Source: Escherichia coli
Lineage (GTDB): Bacteria > Pseudomonadota > Gammaproteobacteria > Enterobacterales > Enterobacteriaceae
NCBI RefSeq assembly: GCF_024502345.1
Contig: NZ_JALDNN010000001.1
Strand: one strand, 5' to 3'
Length of the DNA stretch: 64,000 nt
Positions 2,226 to 39,626 of this stretch are shown here, one piece after another. Both the position numbers and the translations under genes were made by a program. Under the pieces are notes generated by a model. It was not told the DNA's origin. It made no database searches and was given only the letters and a program-made list of their open reading frames with translations. The first letter of the stretch is position 1, and every line of letters begins with the position of its first letter.

Positions 2226-4082
2226 TTAACGCACGTTGGCGCAGGTCAGGCAAAACGCATAACGGTTTTGTGGGTCGTTAAACGCGGCCAGCTTGTCGCT
2301 TTCACTTTTAACGGTAGAGGCTACCGAGGCAAGCGGTGCAGGTAATATGGCCTGGAACGCATCTGGCAAAATTGCCCGGACAGAACCAGACATGTTGTCC
2401 ATCACTTTGTCGAAGAAGGTCGGTTCATCAACGTAGTATTCCAGATGCCACTGTTTCACTTTTGCGAGCTCTGCTGCTTTGGCAACCGCATCATCGAAAT
2501 CCCCGAGACTATCGACCAGCCCGTTAGCTTTTGCATCCTGACCGGTCCAGACGTGGCCCTGGGCGATTTTATCAATTTGCTCCGGCGTCGAATGACGCGC
2601 ATCAGCAACCAGCGTGATAAAGCGTTTATAGCCATTCTCAATGCTTAATTGCATCATCTGCTGCGCTTCCGGCGGCAGTGCCCTGGTGATAGAAACATCC
2701 GCCAGCGGTGAAGTTGAGACACCATCAGTATGAACACCAATCGAATCCAGACTATTTTCTACGGTGGTGATCACGCCGAAGATACCGATAGAACCGGTCA
2801 GGGTGCTGGGGTTAGCCACAATGTAATTAGCTGGCGTGGAAATCCAGTAACCACCAGATGCCGCCATGCCGCCCATCGATACAACCACAGGCTTACCCGC
2901 TGCCCGGGCTGCTGCCAGTTCAGCGCGAATCACTTCAGACGCGGTAACGCTGCCGCCTGGGCTATTAACACGCAGGACAATCGCTTTCACTTTCGGGTCA
3001 AGGCGAGCGTCGCGGATTTGTGCCGCAGTGGTATCACCGCCAACATTCCCCTGAGTTTCCTCGCCATCCATAATTGCGCCATTAGCGAAGACGACACCGA
3101 TGCTGTCACCGGTATCTGCCGGCGTTTTCAATGCGTAATCGTAATAACTGATGGCGCGATAATTTTTATCAGTCTTACTCCAGCCGAACTCTTTGGTCAG
3201 AGCTTTTTCGATTTCGGCACTCGATGCCAGTGCATCGACCAGCTTGTTTTCCAGTGCATATTTCGCGGTATCGCCACCGGTTTTGGTTAAACCCTCAAGC
3301 AACCCTTGCGCGCCAGGGAATACCTGCTGAGCAGGGATCTGCCGGTTAGCGGCAACAGTATTCAGATAGTTTTGCCACAGCTCACCAATCCAGCGGCTGT
3401 CAGCTTCGCGGGCTGCCGGTGACATGTCATCACGAATAAACGGTTCAACGGCAGATTTATACGTACCCACGCGGAACACATGGGTGGAAACTTTCAGCTT
3501 ATCCAGCAACGATTTGTAGTACAGACCGTTGGTAGCAAAACCGTGCAAATCCACCACGCCTTGCGGTGACAGCCAAATTTTATTGGCGAAACTGGCGAGA
3601 TAATATTGCCCCTGGCTGTAGTTCTCGCCAACGGCATAAACCGGTTTCCCGCTGTCACGAAACTCTTTCAGGGCTTTGCCGATGTACTGCATAGACGGCT
3701 GGTCGCCGCCTGCGAAGTTTTTCAGATCCATCACGATACCGGTGATATTGCGGTCGTCCTTCGCCTGGCGAATGGTGTTGACGATATCAAACAGTGAGTT
3801 TTCCTGCAGACGATCGGAACTGGCACCAAGCAGCTGGCGGCTTAATTTACTAAACCGCTGAGAACTGTCGGGTTTATCGACGATCACACCAGAAATGTCC
3901 AGCAGCAGTGCGCCACGACTGGCCGTTTCTTTCGAATCACCACCACTGACCTGCATCCAGATCCCCACACCAACCAGTACGAGGAAAATAAAGAACAGGT
4001 TAAGTACCATTTCACGGACGAAATTCAGCAGACGCCACGTCCATTTAAAAAATCCGGCAATAAATCGCCAAAGGGTTCGCAT
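2226..4082 (-). CDS. sppA: signal peptide peptidase A (protease IV)
   Basis: 618-aa product starting [21 protein letters not shown]... with an N-terminal TM segment and tandem S49 peptidase domains. Track ORF extends 48 codons further upstream. Confidence 0.93.
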
Positions 4083-30274: not shown

Positions 30275-30370
30275 GTGCTACGCCTGTCAGGCCTATTCGA
30301 CTCCTGCAATGCATTGAATTTGCATAGTTTTGTAGGTCGAATAAGGCGTTCACGCCGCATCCGGCGTGAA
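30275..30370. repeat. REP / BIME elements between cho and nadE
   Basis: ...ttgtaggtcgaataaggcgttcacgccgcatccggcgtgaac..., the canonical REP consensus, plus a second partial copy. Confidence 0.75.
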
Positions 30371-30410
30371 CAAATTACTCTTTTTCGCACAATCCAATAG
30401 GTGCAAATTA

Positions 30411-31778: not shown

Positions 31779-31808
31779 TCACTTCGTCTGAAAGCTTGAG
31801 TAACAACG

Positions 31809-31836
31809 GAAACCGGCCATTGCGCCGGTTTTTTTT
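31809..31836 (+). terminator. intrinsic terminator after osmE
   Basis: aaccggc cattgc gccggtt followed by a T8 run. Confidence 0.8.
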
Positions 31837-36547: not shown

Positions 36548-37318
<771 letters not shown>

Positions 37319-37328
37319 GTAAGGTGGT

Positions 37329-37356
37329 AAGGTCACTCCCCAGGGGACGTGACCTT
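37329..37356. terminator. bidirectional terminator-like hairpin between convergent chbG and katE
   Basis: aaggtcac tccccagggga c gtgacctt: 8-bp stem with an internally palindromic loop, in the 46-nt gap between convergent stops. Confidence 0.55.
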
Positions 37357-37364
37357 ATCCATAT

Positions 37365-39626
37365 TTACGCCGGAATTTTGTCAATCTTAGGAATGCGTGA
37401 CCACACGCGGTGTGCTGCCATCAGCGTTAACAGTTCATCCATAAAACTACCGTCGGCGCTGTCAGCTTCCACAATCCCTTCTTCACCCTGGTCAGCGACC
37501 TTGATTGTTGCTTTAAACTTGCGCGCGTCTCCCGCCAGCGCAATCGGTTTAAGGTGTTTGTAGGCTTCCATCAGGTAGTAGTTGGCATCGCCGTTGTCAG
37601 CGATATCCGCGATATTGCCGCAAGGGACAATGACCGCATCGACCGTCAGCGAAGGCGCACCGGCAAAGGTAGCGGCTATAGGCAACACCGTACCGTCATC
37701 CGCAGTCACTTCACCCATTCGGGAGTAGAGCAGTTTGGCATGAACGCCTTTGGCCTTCAGGGCCTTAAGAATGGCCAGAAGGTCTGCCGATCTCACTTCA
37801 TCATTAAGTAAAATCGCTACCACGCGACCTTTCACATCACCGTCAGGAATGGCGTACAAACTTAAGGATGGATCCTTTTTCAGACCGTTGACGTCCGGAG
37901 GTGGGGTGATATTCAGCTGGTCGTCAGTCAGTTCGATACCGAGATTTTTCGCCACCGCCTGGGCCAGAGTGAGATCAATATGCGCCAGCTGGTCAACAAC
38001 GCGCTCACGAATATACGGACGAACGACTTTGCTTAACTCAAAACTGAAACCATCGACAATATGACGCTGCTCGAATGGCGTCTGACTTAGCCAGAACAGA
38101 CGCGGATGGGAATAATATTCGCCAAAAGATGGACTGCGCTCGCGAACTTTATTTCCTTCCACGCGTTCCTGATATGATTCAAAACCGCCGCGTTTCGGTC
38201 CCGGCGGTGTTTCGCGCGGCCAGTTATCGTTGATCGAGTTCGGTTCGTAATTCGCCGGGTTAGTGTCGATCCCCATACGATGCATGCCATCACGCTGGAA
38301 GTTGTGGTAAGGGCAGGTCGGACGGTTAATCGGAATCTCATGGAAATTCGGCCCACCAAGACGACTGATTTGTGTATCGGTATAGGAGAACAAACGTCCC
38401 TGCAACAGCGGATCGTTGGTGAAGTCCAGTCCCGGCACGATATGCCCAGGATGGAAAGCCGCCTGTTCGTTTTCAGCAAAGAAGTTATCCGGGTTGCGAT
38501 TGAGCACCATTTTGCCGACACGCTGAACGGGCACCAGTTCTTCCGGGATAAGTTTGGTTGGATCGAGAAGATCGAAGTCGAACTTGAATTCATCTTCTTC
38601 AGGAATCAACTGGAAGCCCAGTTCGTATTCCGGAAAATCGCCTGCTTCAATGGCTTCCCACAACTCGCGGCGGTGGAAGTCCGGGTCACGTCCGGTTAGT
38701 TTTTGTGCTTCATCCCAAACGAGTGAGGCTTTACCTGCCAGTGGTTTCCAGTGGAAACGTACAAACGTTGCCTTCCCTTCGGCATTAATCAGGCGGAAGG
38801 TATGAATACCAAAGCCTTCCATGGTGCGGTAACTGCGGGGGATGCCGCGATCCGACATCGCCCACATCACGTTGTGCAGAGTTTCAGGTTGCAGAGAAAC
38901 ATAATCCCAGAAAGTATCGTGGGCGCTTTGCCCTTGTGGAATTGCCCAGTGTGGTTCTGGTTTTACCGCATGAACAAAATCGGGGAATTTATGCGCATCC
39001 TGGATAAAGAAGATTGGCGTGTTATTGCCAACAAGGTCAAAAATACCCTCTTCGGTATAGAATTTGGTGGCAAAGCCACGGATATCACGCACGGTATCGG
39101 CAGAGCCAGCACCACCCTGAACAGTAGAGAACCTAACAAATACTGGGGTGATTTTGTTCGGATCTGAGAGGAAATCCGCTTTGGTGATATCGCTTAAGCT
39201 TTTATATGGCTGGAAATAACCGTGAGCTGCTGATCCACGTGCATGAACAATACGTTCCGGGATGCGCTCATGGTCAAAGTGGGTGATTTTCTCGCGCAGA
39301 ATAAAATCTTCCAGCAGCGTTGGACCACGGCTACCGGCACGCAGTGAGTTTTGATCGTCGGCGATGCGCACGCCCTGATTAGTGGTCAGCGCATAATTTT
39401 CACTGCCTTTGCGTACGTCTTCCAGAGAATTAAGTTTTTCGTTACGTGTATCAGGGGCTTTCAGGCTCCCAGGGGCGGTAGGTTGTGCACCTGGCGGTGT
39501 TGGTTCAGCCGCTGGACGATGAGATCCGTCCTCAGGTGCCAGTGAGTCCATCCCCGGTTTCGCTTCGCTGGAATCGTGTAGTGGTGACTGGTGCTGATGT
39601 GGGTTCTTTTCGTTATGTTGCGACAT
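37365..39626 (-). CDS. katE: catalase HPII
   Basis: 753-aa [38 protein letters not shown]... Confidence 0.96.

Follow-up and report, generated by a model that had tools for sequence, protein, structure and literature searches.

Hundreds of convergent gene pairs in Escherichia coli use bidirectional terminators that are unlike intrinsic terminators and that work independently of Rho, as reported by Wang, Watters, Ju and Liu (bioRxiv 10.1101/2022.10.23.513370). The hairpin of such an element is a pause that positions head-on collisions between polymerases; when the ynaJ-uspE element was transcribed alone and in one direction, it released 9% or 39% of polymerases, according to the length of its U-tract (bioRxiv 10.1101/2022.10.23.513370). 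As summarised in the same preprint, the class described by Ju, Li and Liu in 2019, for which ynaJ-uspE is the model element, has the proposed role of pausing and positioning polymerases and of stopping read-through. Further marks of the class are transcripts that end on opposite sides of the hairpin, so that their 3’ ends overlap, and a dependence on convergent transcription. In K-12, Term-seq placed strong 3’ ends at hairpins lacking a U-tract between convergent gene pairs such as can/hpt, with ends at 141973 and 142003 (Adams et al. 2021, PMC7815308). Another group of 3’-end elements is formed by the REP/BIME stabilisers, dispersed repeats with a characteristic consensus.

We examined a palindrome between the convergent genes chbG and katE in a 64,000-nt stretch of E. 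coli DNA (the window). As far as the 2019 class is summarised in the preprint, the palindrome resembles it in being a single stem-loop in a short convergent gap and in being unlike a classic intrinsic terminator, and the locus has two attributes of an overlapping bidirectional terminator: convergent genes and one hairpin encoded on both strands. It differs from that class in that it is known here from its sequence, the K-12 strain used in those studies having no such palindrome, and in that chbG and katE are conditionally expressed, so that collisions should be rare. Compared with ynaJ-uspE, its U-tracts are even poorer.

The chbG-katE gap holds one stable hairpin

The window derives from E. 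coli, and its positions 37200-37480 are 100% identical to O157:H7 genomes. The chbG gene, the last of the chb operon with celF upstream, encodes chitin disaccharide deacetylase and converges on katE. The two stop codons leave a gap of 46 nt (37319-37364), in agreement with the original prediction. RefSeq annotation of this region, taken from the identical O157:H7 sequence, consists of the two coding sequences only, and a full-text literature search for katE together with chbG found no relevant paper. A 79-aa ORF with a GTG start (37324-37563, + strand) overlaps the hairpin antisense to the 3’ end of katE; we took it to be spurious. The features of the locus and the forms of the palindrome are collected in Table 1.

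Table 1. Features of the chbG-katE junction and forms of the palindrome in Escherichia (positions are those of the window).
Feature	Coordinates	Strand	Sequence	Basis or remark
chbG CDS	36560-37318	+		ORF list; RefSeq annotation of identical O157:H7 sequence
chbG stop codon	37316-37318	+	TAA	ORF list
katE CDS (catalase HPII)	37365-39626	-		ORF list; RefSeq annotation
katE stop codon	37365-37367	-	TAA (on - strand)	ORF list; RefSeq annotation
Core palindrome, stem-loop in either strand’s transcript	37328-37357	both		Folding; arm conservation in six Escherichia alleles
Extended stem, bulged U37358	37324-37362	+	GUGG (37324-37327) : CCAU (37359-37362)	Fold
Outermost imperfect helix	37313-37370	+	GUGUAAGUA (37313-37321, includes chbG stop) : UAUUUACGC (37362-37370, complement of katE stop)	RNAalifold consensus; 111-nt fold
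3’ tail, chbG direction	37358-37372	+	UCCAUAUUUACGCCG	Tail score 2.6, marginally U-rich
3’ tail, katE direction	37313-37327	-	CCACCUUACUUACAC	Tail score 1.64, not U-rich
Allele, window / O157			TAAGGTCAC-TCCCCAGGGGAC-GTGACCTTA	
Allele, B2 / ST131 and many others			...TCCCCAGGGGGC...	
Allele, one base shorter			...TCCCCAGGGGC...	
Allele, SCPM-O-B-8794 (L005)			TAAGGTCACTCCC-CAGA-GGGAGTGACCTTA	Perfect 13-bp stem
Allele, E. whittamii (L006)			TAAAGTCACTCCC-TGGG-GGGAGTGACTTTA	Perfect 13-bp stem
Allele, strain E69 (L008)			TAAAGTCACTCCC-CTGG-GGGAGTGACTTTA	Perfect 13-bp stem

Exact inverted repeats, aaggtcac at 37329-37336 and gtgacctt at 37349-37356, enclose 12 nt (tccccaggggac). The 8-bp stem of the original prediction is thus exact, and the real structure is larger: an additional pair, T37328-A37357, brings the outer stem to 9 bp (37328-37336 / 37349-37357). 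The enclosed loop had been described as palindromic in its own right. This is true of the sequence, the first 11 nt of which (37337-37347) form the odd palindrome tcccc-a-gggga, but not of the fold. Five base pairs cannot close around a 1-nt loop, and the inner palindrome therefore folds as 4 bp, UCCC/GGGA (37337-37340 / 37344-37347), with a CAG triloop (37341-37343) and a bulged C37348. The result, a stem-loop of 9 + 4 bp capped by a triloop just downstream of each gene, has the form of an intrinsic terminator’s hairpin (~5-14 bp, loop of 3-8 nt). It begins 9 nt past the chbG stop and 7 nt past the katE stop, so a terminating ribosome would briefly cover its base.

Two further helices can be drawn around the core. 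The extended stem on the + strand is weaker and less conserved than the core, with partial conservation at alignment columns 18-19 with 50-51. The outermost helix has 9 bp, two of which are G-U on the + strand and mismatched on the - strand. Because the stop regions pair with each other in this helix, the whole feature amounts to a 58-nt imperfect palindrome centred between the stops; the helix itself is probably incidental, and terminating ribosomes would occlude it.

Folding was the check proposed with the original prediction, and it came out in favour of a hairpin on both strands (z of about -4.6). The core alone has a free energy of -17.9 kcal/mol on either strand, and for the gap as a whole (46 nt) the values are -24.2 kcal/mol (+) and -22.3 kcal/mol (-). 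Dinucleotide-shuffled gaps averaged -12.3 (+) and -11.5 (-), giving z = -4.66 and -4.59, and 0 of 200 shuffles were as stable. First-order Markov simulations contained ~14 perfect inverted repeats (8 bp or more, loop of 3-14 nt) per 64 kb, so that ~0.01 is expected per 46-nt gap with the inner stem left uncounted. The palindrome is the sole strong hairpin in the convergent gap.

Neither strand supplies a U-tract

The palindrome had been proposed as a compact bidirectional terminator candidate. In the canonical sense, this would be an intrinsic, Rho-independent terminator whose hairpin alone triggers efficient release on both strands. A strong hairpin stands right after both stop codons, as such a terminator demands, and the orthologous site in other genera is a canonical chbG terminator (see below). 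We therefore scored the 15 nt that follow the stem on each strand with a tail score in the style of TransTermHP, calibrated on 20,000 random 15-mers (median 1.94, 95th percentile 3.12; a true T-run scores 5-6). On the + strand the tail (UCCAUAUUUACGCC / UCCAUAUU in short form) contains AUAUUUA and has an interrupted 4 U in its first 8 nt, and its score lies between the 75th and 90th percentiles of random sequence; some termination in the chbG direction is thus conceivable. On the - strand (CCACCUUA) there are 2 U in 8 nt, and the score falls below the random median. Immediately beyond the stem, neither strand has a U-tract, taken as ~5 or more U within 8 nt. Also absent are the 5’ A-run and 3’ T-run that would flank a hairpin used in both directions; the flanks are GGTGG and TCCATA.

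A consensus terminator scan of 36900-37800 returned 0 terminator-like sites, yet the same scan detected the osmE terminator elsewhere in the window (31808-31833, + strand), where K-12 Term-seq has a strong 3’ end (1821865; PMC7815308). True bidirectional terminators in the window, such as AAAAAGGCCGCTCTGCGGCCTTTTT at 58223-58247, are bounded by an A-run and a T-run, whereas the palindrome has neither. Canonical terminators and hairpins flanked by A-runs and T-runs occur in the window at 31808-31833 (+), 58223-58247, 54080-54104, 54285-54306 and 43413-43444. An Rfam 15 covariance-model scan with E up to 10 gave nothing overlapping 37300-37380. Moreover, even ynaJ-uspE, which does have short U-tracts, releases just 9-39% of polymerases (bioRxiv 10.1101/2022.10.23.513370). 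On these observations we regard an efficient intrinsic terminator as unlikely.

The original prediction is thus partly supported. Position, symmetry and stability fit an element common to both convergent transcripts, and the orthologous gap of other enterobacteria holds a true intrinsic terminator; the missing U-tracts and the empty scan speak against one here. The term holds solely in the non-canonical sense of Ju, Wang and Liu, that of a pausing hairpin with poor release on its own.

Sequences beyond the hairpin were also considered. The first 80 nt of katE-strand read-through are C-rich and G-poor (26 C, 9 G), and on the chbG strand the stretch 60-140 nt into the read-through contains 29 C and 13 G. 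The base composition of both regions is compatible with Rho loading.

A canonical chb operon terminator occupies the gap in other genera

We compared 80 chbG loci, one genome per species, and extracted the chbG-katE gap wherever katE was convergent. All 45 non-Escherichia loci with a convergent katE had a strong fold in the gap, with a median free energy of -22.7. The tails were unequal on the two sides: the chbG side exceeded the random 95th percentile at 31 of the 45 loci (median score 3.9), and the katE side at 6 (median 2.13). Because U-tracts are common on the chbG side and rare on the katE side, the ancestral state is a canonical terminator of the chb operon whose hairpin is common to katE, the latter having no U-tract of its own. 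By the same counts, katE typically ends at a hairpin without a U-tract.

The hairpins themselves differ in sequence from genus to genus. The form TGCGGCGC-loop-GCGCCGCATTTTT is that of Citrobacter and Salmonella, and GCCCGGC-loop-GCCGGGCTTTTT that of Klebsiella, Trabulsiella and others; Enterobacter has REP-like pairs that end with a T-run. In Citrobacter, Salmonella and Klebsiella, the gap is a textbook hairpin-plus-T-run terminator for chbG. The window hairpin lies in the same place between the stops and, like theirs, is a single hairpin common to both transcripts. Theirs, however, are short by comparison and rich in GC, with 5-8 T after them on the chbG strand, whereas the window hairpin is longer (13 pairs plus extensions), of mixed composition and unrelated in sequence, and has no T-run.

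Some loci have the hairpin with no katE beside it. In E. albertii (L009 3765-3885) no katE lies downstream of chbG within ~1 kb, and a chbG terminator hairpin of the GCGGCGC type is present. In Citrobacter loci L011, L013, L015, L018, L025, L027 and L028 there is no katE within up to 3 kb of chbG, and the hairpin is present. That the chbG hairpin is kept where no katE was found downstream indicates that it belongs primarily to the chb operon.

Palindrome and BIME alleles segregate in E. coli

The palindrome is unique in the window with 3 mismatches allowed. Among 5426 complete E. coli genomes it was found in 3251, at one place per genome, with a single extra place on a plasmid; the 46-nt gap allele accordingly accounts for ~60% of complete genomes (3248-3251). 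This single-copy status, in the window and across E. coli genomes, rules out a reading of the palindrome as a dispersed repeat. REP/BIME elements are present in many dispersed copies that share the REP consensus; the palindrome has neither property, and the REPs in the K-12 allele bear no sequence relation to it. A REP-like palindrome, GTTCACGCCGCATCCGGCGTGAAC, does occur elsewhere in the window, at 30348-30371.

In 1931 genomes (36%), K-12 derivatives among them, a 257-nt spacer takes the place of the palindrome. In the K-12-type locus L001 (1237-1493) this spacer comprises three REP units (a BIME), a GGCGGCG/CGCCGCC hairpin and, adjoining the katE stop, a GAGGCGGCGC-AATT-GCGCCGCCTC hairpin; it matches at least 40 places per genome in most genomes, as expected for BIME repeats. 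The REP/BIME 3’-end stabilisers of the K-12 allele are thus allelic with the palindrome, and both place hairpins without a U-tract downstream of katE. In K-12 Term-seq data (LB, OD600 2.0; Adams et al. 2021, PMC7815308, supplementary file 1), the katE strand has a single 3’ end in the gap, at 1816378. This end follows by 5-6 nt a REP hairpin that adjoins the chbG stop and has no U-tract, and it falls within a spacer that is not homologous to the palindrome. Since ~36% of E. coli have REP/BIME hairpins in place of the palindrome, the sequence of the palindrome is dispensable, a point against the role favoured below, although some hairpin is always present.

The K-12 allele is linked to a hyperdivergent block that covers the last 345 nt of chbG (window 36974-37364; L001 890-1493). 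Identity between the window and K-12 is 78.5% in this block (69-89% per 100 nt) and ~99% on either side, and the ChbG protein of the window has 252 aa, that of K-12 249 aa. From every other Escherichia allele examined, the block of K-12 is at much the same distance (72-78%). From this equidistance, the K-12 haplotype looks imported or anciently diverged, and the palindrome allele looks like the common Escherichia type. Two other Escherichia species (L004 and L007) have a 139-nt BIME allele that ends in GGTGGCGC-AGTT-GCGCCACC. In one clinical isolate (L086, NZ_OZ546943.1, 100-215), a deletion has taken the 3’ end of chbG together with the palindrome’s left arm; the annotation lists this chbG as a pseudogene, and the right arm alone is left beside katE.

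The stem is conserved among Escherichia alleles

The palindrome occurs in six distinct Escherichia forms (Table 1), all of which fold at -17 to -22.5 kcal/mol. Aligned in a 13-pair register, 10 pairs are invariant across the six alleles. One pair shows a double change that keeps the pairing, G-C to A-U, in E. whittamii and strain E69, which are two related lineages. E. coli proper departs from the perfect stem of its relatives at two inner pairs, which are broken or slipped; in the window allele, a slipped register with a bulged C gives back 4 inner pairs. Most of the variation falls in the loop and in the 5’ flank. The covariation score was reached by 27 of 500 shuffles. With six alleles and one compensatory pair, this covariation is suggestive of a conserved stem, thin and not decisive, and the broken or slipped inner pairs of E. 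coli proper could reflect relaxed constraint. On the chbG side, the tail scores of all Escherichia alleles lie between 2.2 and 2.9, the T-run having been lost in each.

The structure of the gap also bears on whether the palindrome has a selected role at all, or is a neutral by-product of mutation, such as template switching that perfects quasi-palindromes or a remnant of BIME gain and loss. The gap is a hot spot of structural turnover in Escherichia, with alleles of 46, 139 and 257 nt, the longer ones consisting of REP/BIME repeats. Two copies of TAAGGT, at 37320-37325 and 37328-37333, lie in tandem register, and each is complementary to ACCTTA at 37352-37357. AAGGTGG and CCATAT, which flank the palindrome, correspond to the arms and flank of the GGTGGCGC...GCGCCACC hairpin at L007, and E. 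coli proper tolerates its two disrupted inner pairs. However, at least one strong hairpin is retained in the gap of every allele and genus examined, and the arms of the palindrome persist from species to species, with one compensatory change and with variation that preserves length. Moreover, a mutational origin and a present function can coexist. We therefore consider a palindrome devoid of selected function improbable.

The flanks can be read for origin as well. In the window (37320-37333 and 37352-37364), the flanks AAGGTGG and CCATAT are identical to those around the GGTGGCGC-AGTT-GCGCCACC hairpin of Escherichia sp. E1V33 (L007 3870-3898). An older terminator stem may thus have had its centre replaced by the 31-nt palindrome, possibly via template switching. 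Replacement of the centre is proposed because AAGGTGG and CCATAT are common to the window and L007.

Discussion

The hairpin between chbG and katE is an ordinary feature that had not been annotated, most likely a non-canonical bidirectional terminator or a 3’-end stabiliser. We favour, with moderate confidence, the reading that a single stem-loop, encoded by the palindrome, stands at the 3’ end of each of the two convergent transcripts, and that it marks and protects these ends, either pausing polymerase or terminating weakly and non-canonically in both directions, and blocking exonucleases. The palindrome would then be the Escherichia replacement for the canonical hairpin-plus-U-tract terminator of Citrobacter, Salmonella and Klebsiella.

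In the mechanism that we propose, the hairpin would form in the rightward chb operon mRNA and in the leftward katE mRNA just past the stop codon, where it would pause RNA polymerase with at most partial release and so limit antisense read-through into the partner gene. Because U-tracts are absent, the hairpin alone probably releases polymerase inefficiently. Transcripts that did read through would be untranslated antisense RNA over the partner gene, on which Rho could load and complete release. When both genes were active, head-on collision of polymerases might complete release instead. Expression of katE depends on sigma-S and belongs to stationary phase, and the chb operon is induced by chitobiose, so that both are rarely highly active together; the contribution of collisions is for this reason probably minor. 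The stem would also block 3’-to-5’ exonucleases, and trimming back to it would fix and stabilise mature ends a few nucleotides past the stem. We infer that RNA 3’ ends fall at the stem, and that pausing, Rho, collision and exonuclease trimming each may have a share in producing them.

The symmetry of the element could alternatively reflect a site in DNA, bound by a dimeric protein or used for recombination or attachment. The dyad is perfect over 9 bp per arm, and the gap folds as single-stranded DNA at -12.5 kcal/mol (z = -4.4), yet we consider such a site very improbable: it would lie downstream of both genes, with nothing for a regulator to control and no promoter-like site nearby but for a weak match within chbG; a double change from G-C to A-T preserves the pair yet gives each half-site a different base; the loop varies in length and in sequence; there is no insertion at the site in the short-allele loci fetched or among the short-allele matches listed; and the element is single-copy with no related copies. 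A CRP-like or other dimeric-protein site, judged by eye, was also rejected: the half-sites are wrongly oriented (TCAC...GTGA), and the position is downstream of both genes.

Returning to the stem-loop that we favour at both 3’ ends, the element itself matters little, since hairpins at convergent gene ends are commonplace. The locus is of more use as an example of a gene, katE, whose transcripts routinely end at a hairpin that has no U-tract. Because K-12, the strain mapped by Term-seq and SEnd-seq, does not carry the palindrome, published 3’-end maps are not transferable at this position to O157:H7, B2 and other short-allele lineages.

The gap may also be viewed as a natural allelic series of 3’-end elements: a canonical U-tract terminator in other genera, a unique palindrome without a U-tract in ~60% of E. 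coli, and a BIME array of the K-12 type in ~36%. It might be that the palindrome replaces the centre of an ancestral GGYGGCGC/GCGCCRCC stem and that the alleles differ in transcript ends, stability or read-through; we offer this as a speculative proposal with a low probability of being correct. Were the alleles to alter the ends or stability of katE and chb transcripts, or antisense read-through, they would cause strain-specific differences in expression between pathogenic lineages and K-12, and the locus would provide a clean in vivo test of a hairpin that lacks a U-tract, free of convergent collisions. One intergenic position has thus been occupied by three kinds of 3’-end element, with the hairpin kept and the chbG-side U-tract lost in Escherichia, a small, testable example of terminator turnover.
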